A stretch of DNA of 64,000 nt, taken from positions 1-64,000 of the IMG/VR virus record IMGVR_UViG_3300025867_000015; one strand, 5' to 3'. The notes under the pieces are model-generated. The model saw only the letters and a list, made by a program, of their open reading frames with translations, was not told the DNA's origin and did no database searches. Both the position numbers and the translations under genes were made by a program. Below are positions 1-21,925 of this stretch, piece after piece (position 1 is the stretch's first letter; each line of letters opens with the position of its first letter). The stretch is from an uncultured virus (IMG/VR IMGVR_UViG_3300025867_000015). Taxonomy: Duplodnaviria > Heunggongvirae > Uroviricota > Caudoviricetes.

Positions 1-446
1 TTCCCGTTGCTATCAATCGAACCTAGATACTTACCAATACCAGTTTTTGGAAACTTGTAAGTATAGCCAGAAATTGGTGATTCAGAAACTACCATGTAAG
101 GCTGTGTACCTATTGAATAAAATTTCGCGTAAAAAGCAGGAATGATACCAATCACCTGCCCATCAGCACCGGTTAAATTTGAAGGATCACCATTTTCTTT
201 ATAATTATGATTTGTTGGGTCAAGATAATAATTTATTGACAGATCATCATTTACGCAAGCAAACCTGATCTTATTGTAAATAGGCTGTGCAAGATGAACA
301 CTTGCAGCACCTACTTTTGTAAGTATTGTAGAAGGTACTGTTGTATCCCATTGCACCCCGTATTGAGGGTTCAACTTTGAGCCAAGTCGAACGTTTCCAA
401 GTTCGCCTAATTGATTACAAAATTCAAATCCAAATCTACTTTTCAT
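1..446 (-). CDS. Partial virion structural/tail-associated protein (runs off the window start)
   Basis: Not in the ORF track. ATG at 446 opens MKSRFGFEF...YGVQWD...YYLDP...GADGQVIGIIPAFY, with no stop before base 1. The motif pattern resembles Bacteroidota phage tail-fibre domains. Confidence 0.5.
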   Translation of the reverse strand, partial: MKSRFGFEFCNQLGELGNVRLGSKLNPQYGVQWDTTVPSTILTKVGAASVHLAQPIYNKIRFACVNDDLSINYYLDPTNHNYKENGDPSNLTGADGQVIGIIPAFYAKFYSIGTQPYMVVSESPISGYTYKFPKTGIGKYLGSIDSNG

Positions 447-447
447 A

Positions 448-1080
448 TTAAAATACCCGTCTTGATTTTACAATATAAGTATTAGTAGAAGCACTATCCA
501 CTATCTTTATTCTAACTAATCTGCAATTCAAACCATTCATCAATATAGCAAAAGTTAATGTTGTATTAGTGACTGTTAGAGAATTTACAAAACCATCACT
601 TTTCAAATCATAAAAATAACTCTGTACCCAATCTGCATTAGCAGTATCCTCATCATTAGTTACTTCAACAGTCATCGTAATAGTGCCAGTAGTTATTAAT
701 TTACCGGTTAATGATAAACTACTATACCCATCCATACTTATACCGCCAGCAGCTGAGTAATAATTTGTCCCAGCTGTTACATTAGTAGTATCAACTAATG
801 ATGTTAAGACAAACTGATCAATAGTGTCTTTAGGTAGTTCTGCTATTATATTACTTGATGTATCAATAAATGCTGAATTCCAATAAGTTATAAAATCAGC
901 AATAGTAGTGAATGGATCTCCATTACTATCTTCTATATCTTCCAAGTTTGCTGTCAAACATAAAGAAAAATTAGACAAATAATATAATGAAATAGTATTA
1001 CCCGTAATACCTAATCCCAAAGTATTAGGTGGGTATGCTATACCATTTATCTTGTTACCATCAAATGTGTAAAGTCTCAT
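448..1080 (-). CDS. Putative virion structural protein
   Basis: 210 aa, T/S/N-rich and beta-strand-like, downstream of the portal and head genes. Confidence 0.4.
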   Translation of the reverse strand: MRLYTFDGNKINGIAYPPNTLGLGITGNTISLYYLSNFSLCLTANLEDIEDSNGDPFTTIADFITYWNSAFIDTSSNIIAELPKDTIDQFVLTSLVDTTNVTAGTNYYSAAGGISMDGYSSLSLTGKLITTGTITMTVEVTNDEDTANADWVQSYFYDLKSDGFVNSLTVTNTTLTFAILMNGLNCRLVRIKIVDSASTNTYIVKSRRVF

Positions 1081-2755: not shown

Positions 2756-4426
2756 TTATGAATTTAATTGAGAATCGACGTATTTCAAACACTCTCTCGT
2801 TATAGGATTACTATTTATAGACTTTCTCATATCAGGAGTAACACCATTTTCAAATTTATCAAATGGATTTTGAACACCTGTTTCTTCTTCACTTGTCATT
2901 TCATCAACCATTTGATTTTGTTCTTCTCCGCCATACATCTTCATCTGTTGTGATTGTAAATATACACTATTTAATATAGTATCCTTTTTAGGATCTAATT
3001 TACGTCCCATTTCCTTTTCAAAAGCTGCTTCTAATGGCATCATACCTGCATCTAATTTCTTCTTTGTAATATCTACCACAACCTCTTCATCTTCCCTATC
3101 TATACCTGTAAATATAAATTCATACTCTCTATCAAGTTCTGATACAATAGACTTAGTATAATTCTTTTCTAAGAACAATAACAAAGGTTTTAACCCCTTA
3201 TGTTTACTATGTTTTAATCTCTCCTTCTGACCATCCTGACCAAATATCTGAGCCTGTTCTTTAAATGAATAGCCTAACTCACTAGGGTCAATAGTGAATG
3301 TACTAAATATCATAACCATCAAAAACTCCATCCACTGTTGAAACTCCATATCTCTATTATTCATCTGTAAATCCACCCACTCTAAATCTATACCTGAAAA
3401 AATAGGGATTTTATGTGAATTATTTACTCCAGCTAACATCTGTCGCCATGTCTGTCTAAAATCATTCAAAATATCCATATTCACATCATTACTCTTTATA
3501 TTCACAAATCCCTTTGGGTTACTTCCTTGTTTAAAGAAGTTACCGTTGTATTGCATACCCCACAAGGCCCAAGTAATAATATCTAACAAGATCTCTATCT
3601 CAGATGTACCATAACCATTCTTTTCAAGTGCTGTGGAACGATTCCTCTGATCATACATTAACTCCCATGGATAAAAGACTATTTCTTCATTAGTCTTAAA
3701 ATTACGCATTATATTACTCTGATATACCTGGCCATAACGAGGTAAATATCCAAACATTTCATTATATTTCTGCTTAGCCTGTTCTGTAAATCTTGGATCA
3801 ATAGTTTCTAATAATCTTATGGTTGATGCATCTATAGCATTATAGCCAATAAGTTCAAATCTATAATTTCTCTCACACTCAGCAGCTATCTGATCATAAC
3901 TCAGAGAATCTTTTAATATTTTTGCAGTAAAATTATGCAAATCATCAGTAATATCCCACTTACTCTTTACTCCCCCATTATCTAAAAAATTAACAATATA
4001 CTCAATTTTCTTCTTTTCTTCATCAGTCAATTCTTTCTTTTTACCATCATCAAATAAACTCTTCTTTTTTCTTATAGTATACCCTTCTTCTTGTTCATTC
4101 TGAGTAAATCTTAAGAAATTCTGAACCTGAGCTATACGAGTTGTAATTACCTGACTAATAATAGGAGTATCAGCTACTTTCTTTAAAATATCAAAGGATA
4201 CACGTTTCCTTTGCTGCTTATATCCACCTGTTGCTGAGTAAGCCTCAAATGGATCGAACAAAAACGAACGTATATCCTTCTTTTTACTTCTTGACTCCTG
4301 TAAGTAATTCTGAGCTTTAAATATAGCATCAGGGTCATTAGAACGTAAATCTGACTCCAACCTCAAATTTCTTTCAATTTGAAGTTTAGCTATTTGTTCA
4401 TCATACTCTCTGATTTTATCACTCAT
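2756..4426 (-). CDS. Phage portal protein
   Basis: 556 aa with portal-like motifs YGTSEIE, NGNFFKQGSNPKG, DMEFQQW, IDPSELG, KGLKPLL. Confidence 0.9.
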   Translation of the reverse strand: MSDKIREYDEQIAKLQIERNLRLESDLRSNDPDAIFKAQNYLQESRSKKKDIRSFLFDPFEAYSATGGYKQQRKRVSFDILKKVADTPIISQVITTRIAQVQNFLRFTQNEQEEGYTIRKKKSLFDDGKKKELTDEEKKKIEYIVNFLDNGGVKSKWDITDDLHNFTAKILKDSLSYDQIAAECERNYRFELIGYNAIDASTIRLLETIDPRFTEQAKQKYNEMFGYLPRYGQVYQSNIMRNFKTNEEIVFYPWELMYDQRNRSTALEKNGYGTSEIEILLDIITWALWGMQYNGNFFKQGSNPKGFVNIKSNDVNMDILNDFRQTWRQMLAGVNNSHKIPIFSGIDLEWVDLQMNNRDMEFQQWMEFLMVMIFSTFTIDPSELGYSFKEQAQIFGQDGQKERLKHSKHKGLKPLLLFLEKNYTKSIVSELDREYEFIFTGIDREDEEVVVDITKKKLDAGMMPLEAAFEKEMGRKLDPKKDTILNSVYLQSQQMKMYGGEEQNQMVDEMTSEEETGVQNPFDKFENGVTPDMRKSINSNPITRECLKYVDSQLNS

Positions 4427-4464
4427 TACTAATAACAGATCAAAAATATCCGAAATAAAATAAA

Positions 4465-5028
4465 TTATTCAGATAAAACTGTTACAGTAACCACATAATC
4501 TTTATAGGTGACAGTATCTTTAGCAGTAACACGATAAGTCTTAGCGGCAGTAAAGTCATTTTCTGTGGTACCACTTACCTGGGCTGTTGCTCCAATTTTA
4601 GCTGTTGCACTGTTAGTAAGTCTAAATGTAGCCTTTAATGCTGTTACTACTGTTTCAGCTGGTACATCTATATCAATAGTGCCTTCTTCGTGATCAATAA
4701 CTACTACTTCATCTTCTACTCCTATTGAATATTCTAAAATATTACACAACTCATCATTAATATTACTCTCTGCTTGTCTGTCTTCATATACCCTTAAATT
4801 CATATTTAAAGCAACTGCTTTAGCCTTCATTAATTTAAGAGTAGTTTCAAGATAATCACCAAAAAGATTAACTGCTGCCCCACTAGCACCAAGACCAGGT
4901 AACCAATTCTCACCGTCTGTACTATGTTTAATCTCATTAATGAATAAACGATCATTTGTACCTACTGCATTAGTCAAATAGGAGACAAAGAAGGATTCAT
5001 CTATCGGTGAATAAATAAACTGTTTCAT
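4465..5028 (-). CDS. Ig-like domain protein (possible capsid decoration protein)
   Basis: C-terminal IDIDVPAET..LKATF...QVSGTTENDFT..TYRVTAKD..YVVTVT, typical of a DUF5018-like Ig fold. Confidence 0.65.
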   Translation of the reverse strand: MKQFIYSPIDESFFVSYLTNAVGTNDRLFINEIKHSTDGENWLPGLGASGAAVNLFGDYLETTLKLMKAKAVALNMNLRVYEDRQAESNINDELCNILEYSIGVEDEVVVIDHEEGTIDIDVPAETVVTALKATFRLTNSATAKIGATAQVSGTTENDFTAAKTYRVTAKDTVTYKDYVVTVTVLSE

Positions 5029-7799: not shown

Positions 7800-8511
7800 C
7801 TCTTATCAAATAAATAAAGGGTTAGTGTTAATTCTTCAAAATCATTATCAATCTCTCTTACTTTCTTTTCAACATAATTTTTATCTTGTATTTCTTGAAG
7901 TAATGATAACAAAATATTATTATATTTTAGTTTCTCATAATCTGGTCTGCCCACTATCATTTTATTATACTTTAAATATCTATTACTACTACTTATCTTA
8001 ATCACATTACTCATATTTATTACAATATGAGAATCATCAGGTAATCTTACATACCCAAACTTCTTTAAAATTTTTTCAACTATCTTCATATCAATAGGGA
8101 GTTTAATTTTTCTGAATAAGCATTATCAATCTCCATATACCAACCAAAATCTTCTTCATCATCAACAAATAATTCACAAAATCTATCCATCATAACACAT
8201 ACCATATCTAAATGGATTAGAGATGTACAACTGTTAACTATCTTCAACAGTTTATTCTTAGCTGCCAATTTCTTTTCTTTTGAAATTCTTTTCATATCAA
8301 CCCTTTCTTAATCATATCTAATCTGACTTGCCACCAAGTATAATAATAATTAGGAGCATTAAACAATTTATTCAAATTTACCATTAAAATGGCTTCCCAA
8401 TATTTCTTCATTTTATGATATTTTTTCATATTCTATTTTAACGCCATAAAATTAATAAAAATAAATATAACTTTTATATTTATCATTAATTTTTATTCAT
8501 TATAAATAAGA

Positions 8512-8540
8512 AGGGTGGTCTATCTTAGACAGGCCACCCT
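8512..8540 (-). terminator. Hairpin / intrinsic terminator closing the tmRNA coding piece
   Basis: Minus strand AGGGTGGCCTG-TCTAAGA-TAGACCACCCT followed by TCTTATTT. Confidence 0.65.
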
Positions 8541-8668
8541 AATCAGAAATAAAATTCAGCTTATGCAGCTAATCTCATTTCCTGTTTTTGTGTAAAGATG
8601 TTGCCATCTATTTTGCACTGTTATATCTCTTTTATCCACAACTTATGCTGTCTAAACCAGTCAGCCCC
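8512..8668 (-). ncRNA. ssrA: tmRNA coding piece (permuted two-piece tmRNA); tag (A)GNIFTQKQEMRLAA*
   Basis: Starts GGGGCTGACTGGTTTAGAC (5' acceptor strand plus D-loop analogue). Tag frame 8605..8561 follows AAAATAGAT and ends LAA-stop within the hairpin TTAGCT-GCATA-AGCTGA. Confidence 0.92.
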
Positions 8669-8676
8669 TAATAAGA

Positions 8677-8810
8677 AGATAATAAACGATCACCTGGCAT
8701 CATCTGGTGGGTATAAAAAAATATAAAAAACCACCTCTCCCTGGATTATGGGTTACTTCTTGGATCAAACTTTCCTCAGTTCTTCTCGAGAACAACATCG
8801 TTTATTATCT
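8677..8810 (-). ncRNA. Unassigned structured RNA within the tmRNA intervening segment
   Basis: Perfect 14-bp closing stem (8677-8690 with 8797-8810) and internal hairpins GTTCT/AGAAC and GGTGG/CCACC. Confidence 0.6.
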
Positions 8811-8840
8811 GTTCACCGATTACGCATTAGGCGAATTATG

Positions 8841-8906
8841 TGGAGCTGCGGGGAATCGAACCCCGGTCCAAACATAGTTACAAATAACGTCAACAATATA
8901 ACAATA
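8841..8906 (-). ncRNA. ssrA: tmRNA acceptor piece
   Basis: GGAC-CGGGGTTCGATTCCCCG-CAGCTCC-A gives the T-arm and 3' acceptor strand, pairing with GGGGCTG including G3.U70. CCA is not encoded. It lies upstream of the 5' piece. Confidence 0.92.
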
Positions 8907-8908
8907 TC

Positions 8909-8920
8909 TTCAAAGAACTT
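8909..8920 (-). promoter_or_regulatory. boxA-like motif AAGTTCTTTGAA (copy 1)
   Basis: Exact 12-mer also at 9651-9662 and 9913-9924; each copy lies just 5' of an RNA gene. Confidence 0.55.
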
Positions 8921-8944
8921 TACTAATCACTTTATTTAAAAATC

Positions 8945-9262
8945 CTAAAGTGATTCGAATTCTTCTTCCAAATGCTTAATCTCTCTCTCAAAAATCCTTG
9001 CAATACGAATAGCACATTCTTGAATCTCTTCAACTACTTTCTTTTTTAATTCTTCAGATATACCATTAGCAGTCCCAAAATTATCAGATGTATATTCTTT
9101 CCCACCTTCTTTAGTCACAACAACTGTCTGAATACTTAAAGAACAGTCCTTAACTAAAGAACATGTCTCATCCCTGAAAGAAACTGATGCTCGAATTCTA
9201 TTCTTATAGTCATCAATAGTCTTCTTTAATTCATTAGCTTTTTCTAATTTATCTGTTGTCAT
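8945..9262 (-). CDS. Hypothetical protein
   Basis: Start moved to the ATG at 9262 (MTTDKLEKANELK), because the upstream GTG lies in the structured RNA. Confidence 0.6.
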   Translation of the reverse strand: MTTDKLEKANELKKTIDDYKNRIRASVSFRDETCSLVKDCSLSIQTVVVTKEGGKEYTSDNFGTANGISEELKKKVVEEIQECAIRIARIFEREIKHLEEEFESL

Positions 9263-9276
9263 AATATTTGTTTTAT

Positions 9277-9645
9277 CACCCTCTATCTTCAGACTCACTG
9301 AAATTTATTCCACGTATCTCTTACGAGAGTAGTAGGGTCATGCTGAGAACTCATTCGTGTTGGATATGCCATTTTTACATATCAAGAATTGAATCATGGT
9401 ATCCTTTCTCAAGGGAACAACACGTATAGGATTACTCCATTGATGTTTTTACGCCTACAACTCCTATCAGCATTTCTGCCATCGTATGTTGCATATTCAA
9501 CATCCTGTCAATTCAGGATTATCATCTTTATGTGAATCTATCTGCCAGTTTTAGCTTACTTACAAGCGACATGCGCATGACACAGATAATTACTATTGTG
9601 AGATAGTTTTATTCACAAAGGATCAATGTTTAGCCAAAGATTTTC
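9277..9645 (-). ncRNA. Large, multi-pseudoknot structured RNA (about 370 nt), family unassigned
   Basis: ORF-free and GC-richer than its flanks, with more than 10 complementary segment pairs and GNRA-capped hairpins (CTT-GAGA-AAG, TCTC-GTAA-GAGA). Confidence 0.75.
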
Positions 9646-9650
9646 AATTA

Positions 9651-9662
9651 TTCAAAGAACTT
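9651..9662 (-). promoter_or_regulatory. boxA-like motif (copy 2)
   Basis: AAGTTCTTTGAA on the minus strand. Confidence 0.55.
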
Positions 9663-9673
9663 TAGTCCTTTAA

Positions 9674-9914
9674 AAATTCCTGACCGTTATGCCTACGGAA
9701 TAATACATTAACCTCTGTGATACATATCTGAGTCTAATCTACAGTCTGCTACCCACCGTCGGTTGCGCCGAGCATCTGGACAACTGAATATGTAACACTT
9801 TGTCAACTTTTATCTATCCACAAACAACGACCTTTGCAAGAGGTCTAATTATAACTTTTGACTATATGTCGTACCAAGCAGGCTCTATAATTTGTTTGCT
9901 TCAATCAGGAATTT
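9674..9914 (-). ncRNA. Structured RNA (about 240 nt) with a 13-bp terminal stem, family unassigned
   Basis: AAATTCCTGATTG/CGGTCAGGAATTT closing helix; internal GCAAACAA/TTGTTTGT, GACCT/AGGTC and TCGG-CGCAA-CCGA. Confidence 0.7.
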
Positions 9915-9924
9915 CAAAGAACTT
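9913..9924 (-). promoter_or_regulatory. boxA-like motif (copy 3)
   Basis: AAGTTCTTTGAA between tRNA-Leu and the 240-nt RNA. Confidence 0.55.
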
Positions 9925-9930
9925 ATTTTG

Positions 9931-10015
9931 TAGTCTGAGCCAGAGTCGAACTGGCACACTCGCTATGAGTAATAGATTTTAAGTCTATCGTGTCTACCAA
10001 TTTCACCATCAGACC
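9931..10015 (-). tRNA. tRNA-Leu(UAA)
   Basis: GGTCTGA/TCAGACT-A acceptor, ATAGA-CTTAAAA-TCTAT anticodon arm, long variable arm, GTTCGA T-loop. Confidence 0.95.
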
Positions 10016-10196
10016 AGATAACTTTGCATTATGTGCTTCAATCTCCTTTTTCCTCTTTATAAAATCTGCCATACTCAATTTGTCTAATTCTTCTTTATTA
10101 ATTTTCATAACTCGTCATCTACTTCAATAGGATCGACACTTGAAAATGCACCAATTACCAGTGCAACGAATACAACTATTGTCAACATTGCTTCCA

Positions 10197-10436
10197 TTAC
10201 ATTACTCCTTCCTGATTTTTAACAAAGAAATGATCGACATTAAAGTAGTTGTAACCCTGTTTGTTCAACTGATTGCAAACCATGTTTACAATATTATACA
10301 GTTGCTTAATAGAACTTCCTTTCTTATGAGCCTCTCTGACTCTGGTTATCATCACCGATTCTTGTTGATACATTGACAGATTGTTCTTTGGGTTGGCAAA
10401 CTGTCCAATTTTCAGTAATTCATCACTTAGTAACAT
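10197..10436 (-). CDS. Small hypothetical (early-region) protein
   Basis: 79 aa, preceded by the conserved ATTCAAACAATAATTAAAAA leader. Confidence 0.55.
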   Translation of the reverse strand: MLLSDELLKIGQFANPKNNLSMYQQESVMITRVREAHKKGSSIKQLYNIVNMVCNQLNKQGYNYFNVDHFFVKNQEGVM

Positions 10437-13361: not shown

Positions 13362-14561
13362 CTACCCACCCACAGCAAAGCTGATGGGTTGGGCTTCGGA
13401 CTTCGTAGATAGTTGAGTATTACTACTTCTTACACCATCTCCATCCGTGTTTTCGACAGTTCCTGCCGAGTTTAATATTTTTAATCCTTCTTTAAAAATG
13501 TTCTTTGCTGCATTAAGGTCACGGTCTAATACGTGTCCATTTTTGCAAGTCCATTCTCTTATTGAAAGATTTAAGTCTTGATTTATCCAACCGCACTCAC
13601 AACAGGTTTTTGAACTTGGATACCAGCGATTGATTTTAACAATTTGTTTGTCATTCCAATTTGCTTTGTATTCAAGTAATCTTACAAAAGTTCCCCAACT
13701 GGCATCTGATATATGTTTTGCAAGTTTATGGTTTTTGACCATACCTTTCACATTCAAATCTTCTAATGCGATTATATCATAATCAGTTACCAATTTGTGA
13801 GATACCTTGTGTAAGTTATCCATTCGTGAGTTGGTTATCTTCTCGTAAATTAAGGCTGTTTTTCGTCTTTGTTTTTCAAACGAATTACTACCCTTTACTT
13901 TACGAGAAAGATGTTTTTGTGCTTTCGCTAACTCTTTTTCATATTGTTTTGTGTATTTGTTGTTCTTGAATTTGACACCATCAGAAGTAATAGCAAAGTC
14001 TTTTAAACCTAAATCTATTCCACAAACAGCACCAGTCTTTTCTTTTGGTTGATATTGTTCTTCTGATAGTATTGATACGAAATATTTTCCTGTTGGTGTT
14101 TTGCTCAAAGTGCATTTACCAATTTCCCCTTTAACTTCACGGTGAACATTTACTTTAATACCTTCTTTGAATTTTGGTGCAAAAAATCTACCAACTTCAA
14201 GTTTTGCGAACTGTGGAACTGTGAATGAGTTTTTCTTTTTCCTTGACTTAAATTGTGGAAACTTAGCGTTACCTCTAAAGAAGTTTACGTAAGCAGTATC
14301 CAAACATCTTAAAGCAAATTGTAATGATTGGCTATTCACTTCTTTGAGCCAAGCAGTTTCTTCTTTCTTTTTTAGTTCGGTTAATGTAGCAGCCTGTTTA
14401 TAGTAACTATCAGACTTTTTATCTGCTTGATATTGCTCTTTTCTTTCATTTAAAAAGTGATTGAACACAAACCGAACACAACCAAAATGCTTATCCAACA
14501 ACACTTTTTGCTCTTGTGTTGGCTGCAATTCAAATTGATATGTCCGAAAAATTGTCTTCAT
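13362..14561 (-). CDS. tnpB: RNA-guided endonuclease TnpB
   Basis: N-terminal HTH (FGCVRFVFN), RuvC D/E/D residues in GIDLG, LEDL and DRDLNAA, Zn-finger SSKTCCECG. Confidence 0.95.
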   Translation of the reverse strand: MKTIFRTYQFELQPTQEQKVLLDKHFGCVRFVFNHFLNERKEQYQADKKSDSYYKQAATLTELKKKEETAWLKEVNSQSLQFALRCLDTAYVNFFRGNAKFPQFKSRKKKNSFTVPQFAKLEVGRFFAPKFKEGIKVNVHREVKGEIGKCTLSKTPTGKYFVSILSEEQYQPKEKTGAVCGIDLGLKDFAITSDGVKFKNNKYTKQYEKELAKAQKHLSRKVKGSNSFEKQRRKTALIYEKITNSRMDNLHKVSHKLVTDYDIIALEDLNVKGMVKNHKLAKHISDASWGTFVRLLEYKANWNDKQIVKINRWYPSSKTCCECGWINQDLNLSIREWTCKNGHVLDRDLNAAKNIFKEGLKILNSAGTVENTDGDGVRSSNTQLSTKSEAQPISFAVGG

Positions 14562-18472: not shown

Positions 18473-21400
18473 TTAACCACATTTTGAATACCCACAATTC
18501 AAACACTTCCAACATCCATCTGATGGTTGTAGTTTACTACCACATTCAGGACACTCTATAAACTCACTATCTATATAATTACGTAAAACCCTTTGAACAA
18601 CCTTATCAAAACTAGTAACCAATGCATATTGTTCTATTTCTGAAACGATAAACTTAGGATCTATCTTATGTCTAAGCATCATGGAATACTTACGTGTACC
18701 CACTTGATCTTCATTCTCTATAAGATCAATTATATTAGGAATTTCATAAGATTTATCAAATTCCTTATCAACACCTACTAACTTATATACTCTACTCTTT
18801 AGTTTTCTAATAGTACCCTTCTGTATCTTATAAGGGAAAATATGATTAGGTAACTCTGGAAATGCAAATATTTCATATGGTTTCCCTTCATATTTACCTA
18901 CCAAAATCATCCAATTTATTTTCAATGCCACTTTATGATAAATATCACACTCCAACTCTTTTGGCCGTTTAACAGCGTCAACATACTCAAAATTATTTTT
19001 CTTATCATTAACTAATATACCAGATCTTGATCCTTCTCTATATATTGTCATTCCCTTACAACCACTTTTATAAGCTGTCATATAAATATCATCAACAACA
19101 CTAATAGGAGTGTTTTCTGGAATATTAGTTGTTGCAGATATTGAATGATCAACCCACTTTTGTACCCTACCTTGCAATTTAACTTTATCAACCCAATTAA
19201 CATCTGATGAAGTTGAATTATGATAAGGAGACTTACTAACTAATATATTTAATTCTTCATCAGTATAATCTTCCAGTGGTTTTTTATAATCAATATCAAA
19301 CAATTTAATATCTGTTTTATACCAATTTTTATCATACCAGTCTTTAAACTTATGATGAAATACATTATATTCTTCAAACATCTCACCATGTTCATCAATA
19401 AAAGTAGCTTTACTCTTATCTATAGTCCTTCTTCTACGTTTATAAAATACAGCAAAACAAGGCTCTATACCAGAAGTAGTTTGTGTCATTATACTAGTAG
19501 TCCCAGTAGGGGCTATAGTTAAGTTAGAAATATTTCTACGACCATATTGTTTATAAACTAAATCAAATCTCCCCAATTCAGAATCACTATAATTAAAATC
19601 TGATATCCAATTAATAACTCTACTAACAAATGGATTATTTTTTTCTAATTCAAAATCCCACTTAAGAAATGACTCTCTCTCCTTAGCCATTATAATAGAT
19701 GATACATAACTTGAAATAGCTAATTGTTCATGAACTCTCTCACTCATATCAATAGCTAATCCAGAACCATATGTAAACCCTAATGCAGCCAACATATCAC
19801 CTTCTCCTGTTGTTCCTAATCCTGTTCTACGACCTGCTTGAGTTTTATAAAATATATTCTCCCAAAGTTCTTTTTCAACACTCTTAATACTATCTGATTC
19901 AGGATCATTTTCTATTTTTTCAAGTATCCTGTTTATCTTCTCAAGTTCTAAATCTACTAAATCGTCCATTAATCTTTGAGCAATAATTACATGTTCTTTG
20001 AATAAATCAAAATTAAAATATGCATCTTTCTCAAATGGATTAACAACATATGAATAAAGATTAATAGACATCAATCGACAACTGTCTTGAGGACAAAGTG
20101 GAATCTCTCCACAATTATGAACTAACAAACCTGAACTGTTTAAGAATTTATCATCATCTGTTTTAGTTATAATATAAAAATTATGATAATCTTCAACATA
20201 AATATCATATACTTCTTCTTTAGCAAGTTCTATAATATTATCTACATATATAGATTCATCTAAATTAACATTAATATCTTCAGGTTCTAATTCTTTTAAT
20301 AGATTACCAAATTCCTTATCAAATAACATTAAAGAATTTTCTAATCTATCATTATCCCAATTATATTTTTTAGCATTTGCATAAATATTTTTACGTTTAT
20401 TCATTAATCTTAAACGTTCTGTACCAACTATCTTATGAATAGGATTAGATTCTCCAATTCTATCTGTAATTTTAACATGCTCATTTATATCTAATAACCT
20501 TAAATTATTTAATGAATCATTTGTAGAATCACGATCAATATGATCAATATTATATAATTTACCATCATAAGAACCATAAAAATATTCATAAATCATTCTA
20601 TATTGTTTAGAATACCCATTATATCTACTATTAATATGTCTATATGATGATCCATTATTTTTATTAGAAAAAGAATAAAATTTACCTAACTTAACTCCTA
20701 AAGAATCTTTTGCTTCAACATAATTACCATCAAAAGTAGCTAATAAATGATCTGGAGTACATCTAAAAGAAGAGCCATCAGAAAGAATTACTTCTAAAAC
20801 TTTTCTTATACCAGTTTTAAATGCAATACCTTCTTTAATATTAACTTTCCATCCTCCACCTCTATTACCGTTAGAAGCATTCTTATCAGCACAATATACT
20901 AAAAATTTACTTCCCTTATCAGCTAATTCTTTAATAGTAACACCATTTCTTCCATCAGCAACAGCAATAATTGTATCTCCAGTTAAACATGGATTAGTTG
21001 ACTTAGTCTTCCACTCTTCTCCATAACAATCTGCAGGTGATTCTCTTATAATAGTATCCCAAAAGAGGATACCCGGTTCAGCTGATTTCCATGCATTCTT
21101 AATTATCTTATCCCAGAGATATCTTGCTTTTACTTTCTTTATATACCCACCATCAACCTTTAGTAGTTTGTTATACTCTAATTTATTAATTAAATCATAA
21201 TCTTTACTACAATATGGTATCTCTAAATCAATAGGAAAAGTTTGATAAAAATCACCATCACATACTACTCTTCCCATAAACTCATCTGTTATACGAACAG
21301 ATATATTAGCATCTGTTATCTTACCACTTTCTAATTTTGAATCTATAAATCTTTCAGCATCGGGATGTTTAATAGAAATAGATAACATCAATGCCCCTCT

Positions 21401-21925
21401 ACGATCACCTTGTCTTACTTCTTTAGTGGAATTAGAAAATCTCTGAGCATACAACACTGATCCTGCCATATCATTTAAAGCAGCATTATTAGCTAAAGCC
21501 CCAGCCGGTCTTAGATTAGATAAATCATGACCAACTCCACCTCTTCGTTTCATTAACTGTATTTGTTCTTCATCTGTACGCATTATACCACCATAAGAAT
21601 CTATAGCAGAATCTATAACAAAACAATTGGAAAGAGAAGTTATTGAAAATTCATTCCCGATCCCAAACATAGGTGATCCCTGTGGAACTATATATCTAAA
21701 TCTATCAAACAATTCAAATATCTTCTTTTCAGAAATGGGATTTGGATAGTTAGACTCTATTCTAGAAAACTCCTTAGCTAATCTTCTATGCATATCTTCA
21801 GGTGTCTTCTCTTTTATATCACCATTTTTATCTTTCAATGCATATTTATCTATCCACACATTAGCAGCTAGTTCATCGCCATTAAAATATTCACATACTG
21901 ATGAAAATATTTCTTCTTTAGTCAT
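18473..21925 (-). CDS. nrdJ: Class II (adenosylcobalamin-dependent) ribonucleotide reductase, intein-containing
   Basis: SLSNCFV, RRGGVG, RRGALM, NP[intein]CGEIPL, RRTGLG, TIAPTGT, SGIEP, C-terminal Zn ribbon; no beta subunit nearby. Confidence 0.93.
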   Translation of the reverse strand: MTKEEIFSSVCEYFNGDELAANVWIDKYALKDKNGDIKEKTPEDMHRRLAKEFSRIESNYPNPISEKKIFELFDRFRYIVPQGSPMFGIGNEFSITSLSNCFVIDSAIDSYGGIMRTDEEQIQLMKRRGGVGHDLSNLRPAGALANNAALNDMAGSVLYAQRFSNSTKEVRQGDRRGALMLSISIKHPDAERFIDSKLESGKITDANISVRITDEFMGRVVCDGDFYQTFPIDLEIPYCSKDYDLINKLEYNKLLKVDGGYIKKVKARYLWDKIIKNAWKSAEPGILFWDTIIRESPADCYGEEWKTKSTNPCLTGDTIIAVADGRNGVTIKELADKGSKFLVYCADKNASNGNRGGGWKVNIKEGIAFKTGIRKVLEVILSDGSSFRCTPDHLLATFDGNYVEAKDSLGVKLGKFYSFSNKNNGSSYRHINSRYNGYSKQYRMIYEYFYGSYDGKLYNIDHIDRDSTNDSLNNLRLLDINEHVKITDRIGESNPIHKIVGTERLRLMNKRKNIYANAKKYNWDNDRLENSLMLFDKEFGNLLKELEPEDINVNLDESIYVDNIIELAKEEVYDIYVEDYHNFYIITKTDDDKFLNSSGLLVHNCGEIPLCPQDSCRLMSINLYSYVVNPFEKDAYFNFDLFKEHVIIAQRLMDDLVDLELEKINRILEKIENDPESDSIKSVEKELWENIFYKTQAGRRTGLGTTGEGDMLAALGFTYGSGLAIDMSERVHEQLAISSYVSSIIMAKERESFLKWDFELEKNNPFVSRVINWISDFNYSDSELGRFDLVYKQYGRRNISNLTIAPTGTTSIMTQTTSGIEPCFAVFYKRRRRTIDKSKATFIDEHGEMFEEYNVFHHKFKDWYDKNWYKTDIKLFDIDYKKPLEDYTDEELNILVSKSPYHNSTSSDVNWVDKVKLQGRVQKWVDHSISATTNIPENTPISVVDDIYMTAYKSGCKGMTIYREGSRSGILVNDKKNNFEYVDAVKRPKELECDIYHKVALKINWMILVGKYEGKPYEIFAFPELPNHIFPYKIQKGTIRKLKSRVYKLVGVDKEFDKSYEIPNIIDLIENEDQVGTRKYSMMLRHKIDPKFIVSEIEQYALVTSFDKVVQRVLRNYIDSEFIECPECGSKLQPSDGCWKCLNCGYSKCG
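20114..20989 (-). mobile_element. Intein (292 aa) with HNH endonuclease domain in RNR
   Basis: CLTGDT...CTPDH...HIDRDSTNDSLNNL...VYDIYVEDYHNF...LVHN/C, inserted in the NPCGE active-site motif. Confidence 0.93.

Follow-up and report, generated by a model that had tools for sequence, protein, structure and literature searches.

An uncatalogued, widespread family of phage-encoded structured RNAs with a member in the tRNA/tmRNA island of an uncultured phage

The window analyzed here is a stretch of 64,000 nucleotides from an IMG/VR phage record of 76.5 kb and 30% G+C. Its minus strand carries, from 9636 to 9273, a gene for a stable non-coding RNA that is about 360 nt long and belongs to an uncatalogued, widespread family of phage-encoded structured RNAs. 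Most likely, the product is a stable trans-acting RNA of the tRNA/tmRNA island of the phage. An RNA gene of an uncatalogued family whose compact product works in trans is, as a whole, the explanation that we favor, with a probability of roughly 0.6. The original prediction, made from the bare sequence, had placed an ornate structured RNA on this strand at 9277 to 9645, and this much is borne out by family motifs, by covariation, and by RNA contigs.

Delimited by the 5' and 3' motifs of the family, the gene measures 364 nt (9273 to 9636, minus strand, like all parts of the RNA described below), and the mature RNA extends from about 9636 to 9277, that is, from the start of P1 to the end of P7, with a tail to 9273. 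The P1 hairpin (9620 to 9635), with the conserved loop CUAAACAUUGAU, has only 2 bp (GG/CC) in the window copy and carries the family loop motif exactly, at 9623 to 9631. It is followed by the P1a domain (9531 to 9617), which is closed by the covarying helix UGUGAAU/AUUCACA around a variable interior, and by an expanded P2 domain (9426 to 9522), closed by AUA/UAU, where changes on both sides are seen in six of six P2 pairs. Within the latter, P2a (AUCCUG/CAGGAU, 9502-9519) and the P2c hairpin GGA-GUAA-UCC (9429-9438) are common to long-form members, and the insert between them (9439-9501) is specific to the window and replaced in diverged RNA contigs. The 5' strand of P3 (CGUGUUG, 9418 to 9424) has its partner at 9356-9362. 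Enclosed by P3 are the P4 hairpin (9402 to 9416), with a bulged C, the sequence CUU-GAGA-AAG, a GNRA loop at 9407-9410 and three covarying outer pairs, and the variable hairpin P5 (9363 to 9401), a position at which every member has a hairpin of differing sequence and length. The 3' strand of P3 (CAACAC) leads into the conserved joining strand GAAUGAGUUCUCAGCA (9341 to 9362 together, the joining strand itself being 9341-9356), after which the P7 domain (9278 to 9338) pairs ACCCU (9334-9338) with AGGGU (9278-9282) around window-specific hairpins; the P7 motifs GACCCUAC and AGGGUGCUAA are present in most members.

The gene closes with the 3' tail GAUAA (9273 to 9277), whereas the family consensus is GCUAA. 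A second phage, L002, is 99.3% identical and differs in 1.8 kb solely by a 12-nt indel directly after the RNA; the window tail reads GAUAA because of this 12-nt deletion, which starts at the tail, and L002 keeps GCUAA. With its 2-bp P1 and its tail affected by the deletion, the window copy looks slightly eroded. Its core is intact: all P3 and P4 pairs form, blocks of 40 and 24 nt are 100% identical to the relative L065, and the core model described below matches at 9341-9454 with 92.4 bits, the window sequence itself being in the seed of that model.

Among the matches listed, 97 distinct cores gave member lengths of 146 to 502 nt (median, 315), with the P1-loop motif in 89, the 3' motif in 91, and both in 83 of them. 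All members share a core consisting of the GNRA hairpins P2 and P4, helix P3, and the conserved joining strand. This core is set by minimal members of 146 to 147 nt (L130 and its kin, 147 nt), in which a P1 hairpin whose loop contains AAACAUUGA precedes the P2 GNRA hairpin on the 5' side, P3 encloses P4 (bulged C, CUU-GAGA-AAG) and the variable P5 in the middle, and the joining strand GAAUGAGUUCUCAGC leads to P7 (ACCCU/AGGGU) and the tail GCUAA on the 3' side. In longer members P1a is added, P2 becomes a three-way domain ending in GGA-GUAA-UCC, and P6 as well as extensions of P7 are inserted, while peripheral hairpins are gained and lost from one member to the next. The inner part of P4 is invariant, partly as the search patterns demanded it; the member of Cellulophaga phage phi14:2, which was found by BLAST, also has it.

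BLAST of 821 nt against cultured phages returned only tRNA-Leu matches, and a 126-nt core, searched against the same phages at E ≤ 10, led to phi14:2. Neighboring genes served poorly as anchors: the downstream open reading frame (ORF) retrieved a 99% identical phage and one 36% relative lacking a gap for the RNA, a 388-aa gene recovered the identical phage alone, and the T arm of the tmRNA gave 22 loci with no homologue of the RNA. Likewise, BLAST found no homologue in four larger relatives by portal (67 to 70% identity) and a 4.5-kb fragment (84%), the single 33-nt match being coding region, and three of these portal relatives were negative with the core model as well. In the portal relatives, the slot between two conserved genes is filled by other small genes and RNA genes. 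The absence of the RNA from the closest portal relatives (67 to 70%) therefore indicates that it is dispensable for that lineage. The 18-mer GATAATCCTGAATTGACA occurred at nine loci, comprising the near-identical phage, one true relative, and seven chance matches in coding sequence. Exact patterns drawn from the conserved blocks retrieved relatives in more than 119 viral contigs and at least 17 metagenome or metagenome-assembled genome (MAG) loci, and phi14:2 adds a cultured one. With a 19-base gapped pattern run on metagenomes and genomes, 219 of the 238 loci listed were chance, and the counts are no measure of prevalence or host range. Two true matches in the genome collection, among those listed, lie on MAG contigs labeled Peribacteria and Saccharibacteria, which may be mis-binned phage.

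To score these loci, we used a covariance model of 117 positions (R1) that represents the core, P2-P3-P4-P5 plus the joining strand; P1, P1a, and P7 lie outside R1 and were judged by scripts only. True members scored 60 to 105 bits, as opposed to at most about 30 bits for chance pattern loci, and of the at least 119 viral loci that the last scan had yielded, 100 were scored and R1 matched every one. Membership of one locus, L075, is uncertain, and L096 reached just 29.8 bits. Two loci (L388 and L415) each hold two tandem members about 350 nt apart (R1, 70.9 and 79.5 bits).

Covariation within the family is strong. In a MAFFT alignment of 29 sequences (A3), 95.1% of cells were paired, compared with 75.0% upon shuffling, and 15 of 19 pairs were altered on both sides (110 cells); the covariation score was 0.594 against 0.199, with none of 500 shuffles as high, and sliding the partners lowered pairing to 38 to 53%. 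An alignment of 93 distinct sequences (A4), which was made to the model and thus leans towards it, gave 96.5% paired cells against 74.8%, both-side changes in 16 of 19 pairs (310 cells), and a score of 0.545 against 0.135, again unmatched in 500 shuffles. P3 has 99% of cells paired and both-side changes in six of its seven pairs in A3 and in all seven in A4, where 61 sequences have U-A as the first pair, 19 have C-G, and 10 have A-U. G-U pairs, for instance in 7 of 29 sequences at one P3 pair in A3, identify the minus strand as the functional RNA strand. As to the parts outside R1, the P1 stem around the loop motif averaged 4.33 bp in 27 members against 3.16 when permuted, and the closing helix of P1a averaged 7.25 bp against 5.60 with permuted partners, with 0 of 1,000 permutations as high in either case. 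P7 is mostly invariant and offers a few compensatory changes (ACCCA/UGGGU in L174, ACCUA/UAGGU in L162, and GCCCU/AGGGC in the uncertain L075); the P7 script chose spurious 5' arms in eight rows.

The details of the fold first proposed for this RNA fared less well, its pseudoknots above all, and were largely not borne out. All the complementary words named do occur in the sequence, but words of 5 to 7 nt are about what chance leads one to expect in 370 AT-rich bases. Around half of the proposed nested helices have support from the family: TGTGAAT/ATTCACA is P1a, ATCCTG/CAGGAT is P2a, CGTGTTG/CAACACG is P3, and the GNRA hairpin CCTT-GAGA-AAGG is P4. GATATG/CATATC is plausible, falling at the position of the variable hairpin P5, whereas ATGCTGA/TCAGCAT and ATAGGA/TCCTAT are contradicted, as they clash with the conserved joining strand and the GGA-GUAA-UCC hairpin. 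TATCTG/CAGATA, TGTTG/CAACA, TTCAG/CTGAA, and a GTAA hairpin all lie within inserts specific to the window phage. None of the four crossing pairings is conserved, each having one arm in a window-specific insert. Of the checks named with that prediction, folding against shuffles gave it no support: the minus strand has a minimum free energy (MFE) of -82 kcal/mol versus -79.1 ± 5.4 for shuffles (z, -0.54; 25 of 100 fold as well), and the plus strand gave a z of -0.48. This flat z-score is explained by the family fold not being the MFE fold (-69 versus -81.4 kcal/mol in the window copy). The search for compensatory substitutions in homologues came out strongly positive, as detailed above.

Assembled contigs from two activated-sludge metatranscriptomes (X4 and X5) point to an RNA that accumulates as a discrete species. 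Exact contigs of 119 to 146 nt cover 9286-9431 (depth, 218), 9409-9528 (370), 9410-9528 (553), and 9501-9628 (323), hence 9286-9628 jointly at depths of 218 to 553, values that are averaged over each contig and may include relatives. Where exact contigs lie on other parts, the depth is 2.4 (ORF), 4.3 (tmRNA), and 2.7 (upstream genes). Among phage-derived RNAs, that of the family appears to be one of the most abundant in both samples. Abundance and boundaries are to be taken as hints only, because the data are assembled contigs with pooled mean depths and carry neither strand nor true ends, and stretches without contig cover are not read as silent. Many further contigs, 80 to 95% alike, keep the blocks 9635-9615, 9537-9498, 9441-9402, and 9362-9341, while the stretches between them are replaced: the P2 insert is swapped (joints 9438-9442 to 9498-9506), and so is the P5 stretch 9363-9401 (joint 9362 to 9402). 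Such kept blocks and replaced stretches are characteristic of a family in which the core is conserved and the inserts vary.

In the window, the gene is part of an island of RNA genes that all lie on the minus strand, in the order tRNA-Leu, element A, structured RNA, small ORF, and permuted tmRNA. The tRNA-Leu(UAA) (9930 to 10015) marks the upstream end. Element A (9663 to 9912) is an ORF-free module of 250 nt with no Rfam match and with no similarity in any locus collected for the family. RNA contigs match it at 99% identity with depths of 35 to 44 and continue into unlike sequence, and one DNA variant lacks it, joining 9635 to 9912 through 11 other letters. Directly downstream of the structured RNA is an ORF of 105 codons (ORF105, 9262-8945), followed by a permuted, two-piece tmRNA (8470 to 8931; Rfam RF04321, 62.3 bits; ARAGORN tag GNIFTQKQEMRLAA*), for which an exact RNA contig was found over 8694-8899 (depth, 4.3). 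A DNA contig (run X3) links 8920 to 9282, and this joint implies a variant phage that lacks the 105-codon ORF and has the RNA directly beside the tmRNA. Hence, the island varies module by module. The 12-mer AAGUUCUUUGAA lies 15 nt upstream of the RNA (9651 to 9662, minus strand), with further exact copies at 9913-9924 and 8909-8920; as AAGTTCTTTGAA, it precedes element A, the structured RNA, and the tmRNA. The window holds three exact and five one-mismatch copies compared with 1.41 expected, and none of 100 shuffles reached eight. It may serve as a promoter, as a signal for processing, or as a site of recombination. Scans for sigma-70 promoters and terminators did no better than on shuffles.

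Other features of the window were noted in passing. The AT-rich stretch at the tmRNA 3' end (8441-8512) has 69 to 89% identity to numerous places in three related phages (G001 to G003), which suggests a repeated intergenic element. A TnpB-like gene at 13362-14561 (minus strand) has OrfB_IS605, Cas12f1-like TNB, and HTH_OrfB_IS605 domains. An ORF of 1,150 aa (18473-21925, minus strand) aligns in two pieces to homologues of about 860 aa in relatives, and its extra middle part reads like a putative intein with an HNH motif.

The member in phi14:2 brings the family into a cultured phage. It occupies 2912-3359 of the record, rightward, filling the long gap between gp006 and gp010, and scores 75 bits with R1 (E, 4e-16), outside the seed. 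Like the window RNA, it has the P1 loop, P2a, GGAGUGAUCC, P3, P4, the joining strand, and the AGAGGGUGCUAA end; its joining strand has A in place of the first G, and U replaces the paired C. The two RNAs differ in length (448 nt versus about 360 nt in the window) and in their peripheral inserts. Drobysheva et al. describe two long intergenic regions of phi14:2, at the g004-g005 and g005-g006 junctions, that are transcribed rightward above most genes, present from the earliest time point, and, unlike other early transcripts, not declining later; their account attaches no structure, family, or function to the transcript (10.1101/2020.03.07.982082). Judged from gene order only, and with a gene numbering in the preprint that differs from that in GenBank, the phi14:2 family member is probably the abundant early "long non-coding RNA" of the g004-g005 junction. 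The second long gap holds a tmRNA (L337 3418-3887, corresponding to about 4031-4500 of KC821624.1, plus strand; ARAGORN tag GSSVQKLAMVA*), which overlaps small annotated ORFs and scores 46 bits with Rfam against a cut-off of 47. This tmRNA probably accounts for the second abundant non-coding transcript, and it follows from its position that both phages have the order RNA, small ORF(s), tmRNA. ORF105 of the window and gp010 of phi14:2 show no similarity. Three tandem copies of AAAGAACTT downstream of the phi14:2 RNA match part of the reverse complement of the 12-mer.

The portal protein of the window phage has its nearest relatives in Chryseobacterium phage MA9V-3 (35%), in phages of Bacteroides (33%), and in SPO1-like phages, whereas phi14:2 is a crAss-like podovirus. 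Since the family occurs in a crAss-like phage as well as in the window phage, which is not crAss-like, the RNA gene must have moved between phage lineages. The original prediction had pointed to GOLLD and ROOL as large phage RNAs beside tRNAs, and this context recurs at the window and at 9 of 14 viral loci searched, where a tRNA or tmRNA is found on the same strand within 1.5 kb. It is not universal: with shorter flanks, a tRNA or tmRNA neighbor was seen far less often, in 7 of the 119 loci listed (450-nt flanks) and in 1 of 16 metagenome or MAG loci. Pfam searches of 79 neighboring ORFs at 30 loci revealed no recurring family. At a single one of these loci, L088, a gene with a TROVE domain (Ro60-like; 1-852, minus strand) lies on the same strand about 570 nt downstream of the member, which itself follows a tmRNA; the gap between member and TROVE gene might hold Y-RNA-like genes.

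Of the two options that the original prediction had left, a divergent member of GOLLD or ROOL and a new class, the former fails and the latter holds. Searched with the 4,227 models of Rfam 15, the window gave nothing in 9277-9930, at the gathering score or at E ≤ 10 (regions 8400-10200, 1.8 kb, and 9255-9665, 411 nt), including no match to GOLLD (RF02032). Models of ROOL, OLE, group I and II introns, RNase P RNA, 6S RNA, and Y RNA did not overlap the RNA in the window or in the loci of 30 relatives, and in the searches of all Rfam models nothing overlapped it at 14 viral loci with a pattern match (E ≤ 0.1) or in 16 further homologues (E ≤ 0.01). The GOLLD model itself works, as seen from a 173.5-bit match in L098 about 1 kb from the family member. 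We found no description of the structure or function of the family in the literature. Four motif strings did not occur in six of the nine supplementary files of a 2023 survey that lists candidate structured RNAs of viruses (PMC10690425), so that the family may still be listed in that work, and no related term has a relevant mention in a 2026 preprint on a genome language model. We conclude that the family is a novel class within a known kind, the large structured phage RNAs of unknown function.

As to its function, we propose that the RNA folds compactly, works in trans, and would be neither message nor leader. Its conserved unpaired strands and GNRA loops may form a surface for binding a partner from the host or the phage, probably one tied to tRNA or translation. 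Release from a longer island transcript would probably be brought about by the enzymes that mature the adjoining tRNA and tmRNA.

Alternatively, the unpaired strands and the two GNRA loops could make up the active site of a ribozyme that cuts or ligates RNA and frees, for example, itself or the neighboring tRNA/tmRNA from the island transcript. We consider this unlikely, although conserved junction strands inside covarying helices, with peripheral inserts tolerated, are the typical pattern of a ribozyme, and in three loci (L080, L065, and L068) the RNA gene ends 6 to 17 nt before a tRNA. Moreover, in L065 the RNA gene is interrupted, at 1116-2235 between the P2 domain and P3, by a gene on the opposite strand for an HNH endonuclease of 173 aa, as is also seen with catalytic introns. 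After the HNH gene, P1 occurs a second time together with a new, simple P2, and the two restore a complete short form there, which is evidence of selection on the RNA. However, no ribozyme or intron model of Rfam matches at E ≤ 10, neither exons nor an interrupted gene flank the window RNA, the exact RNA contigs span its whole body with no internal break, and for most members the flanks examined contain no tRNA next to the RNA gene.

Somewhat more doubtful, to our minds, is an RNA-only multimer in the manner of ROOL and GOLLD, in which the P1 loop and the GNRA loops would make contacts between subunits. In its favor, the genomic niche is that of ROOL and GOLLD (phages and tRNA islands, with GOLLD close by in L098), the RNA is abundant, and its conserved loops have no conserved partner inside the molecule. 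The formation of homo-oligomers by ROOL and GOLLD has been demonstrated (PMC12286853). The family nevertheless lacks any similarity to either RNA in sequence or by model, and its minimal members, at 146 to 147 nt, are far smaller than both.

It is highly improbable that the RNA is a known cellular one, such as RNase P RNA, 6S RNA, or Y RNA, that is carried by phages and has diverged strongly. The gene adjoins tRNA and tmRNA genes, which need such partners, and a TROVE gene lies near the member in L088. Y RNA and RNase P RNA have a helix that joins their 5' and 3' ends, but no such helix exists in the family, and neither the rarity of the TROVE gene nor the Rfam results at the window and the 30 relatives' loci agree with this reading.

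We would give equally little credit to a cis-acting leader or processing spacer that regulates the downstream ORF or the maturation of the tmRNA and has no role of its own. The RNA does lie directly upstream of an ORF (start, 9262) and the tmRNA, and phi14:2 has the same order. Yet the downstream neighbors vary among members (tRNA, tmRNA, and unrelated ORFs), the small ORFs of the window and phi14:2 are unrelated, the DNA variant without the ORF (joint 8920 to 9282) retains the RNA, and the RNA contigs are far deeper than those of the ORF. Finally, chance complementarity in an AT-rich spacer, with no functional RNA at all, would account for the two flat folding z-scores but is refuted by the covariation among 93 distinct relatives, the conservation across unrelated phages, and the exact RNA contigs.

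This leaves a stable RNA acting in trans as the reading that we prefer. A bolder version, which we put forward tentatively and think possible rather than probable, is that of a new class of RNA machine, either compact ribozyme or RNA-only assembly, that would be made from the outset of infection and aid or subvert host translation together with the tRNAs and tmRNA of the phage. If true, such a machine might, for example, counter defenses that attack tRNA or mRNA, and it would have spread horizontally among unrelated phages that infect Bacteroidota and other hosts. With phi14:2 on Cellulophaga baltica there is a non-pathogenic model in culture, which makes the function of the RNA directly testable. 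A natural comparison is offered by the window copy and the 99% identical phage, whose tail still has the consensus sequence.

In summary, a family that is absent from Rfam 15 is nevertheless found in considerably more than a hundred genomes of uncultured phages from lakes, sea, sludge, and gut. To this family the window adds one more member, in another phage lineage, unrelated to the crAss-like phages, together with a modular, polymorphic island of RNA genes. Large, highly conserved, and highly expressed RNAs without known function are rare, and past examples proved to be ribozymes, ribonucleoprotein cores, or RNA-only assemblies. Among known systems, bacterial Y RNA with its protein Ro60/Rsr resembles the family as a stable structured RNA tied to tRNA-like biology, and a TROVE gene lies near one member; the family differs in having no terminal stem joining its ends, no Rfam match, and a TROVE gene at only 1 of 30 loci. 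ROOL (Rfam RF03087) shares with the family its phage niche beside tRNAs, its abundance, and its ornate fold of many hairpins, but the region of the window RNA has no Rfam match of any kind, and the smallest members of the family need as few as 146 to 147 nt. GOLLD is likewise a large structured phage RNA among tRNA genes, in comparison with which the window RNA is much smaller, has a different core, and gives no model match at E ≤ 10. Both kinds of RNA meet in L098, where GOLLD lies about 1 kb downstream of the family member, as a separate gene with a tRNA between the two.
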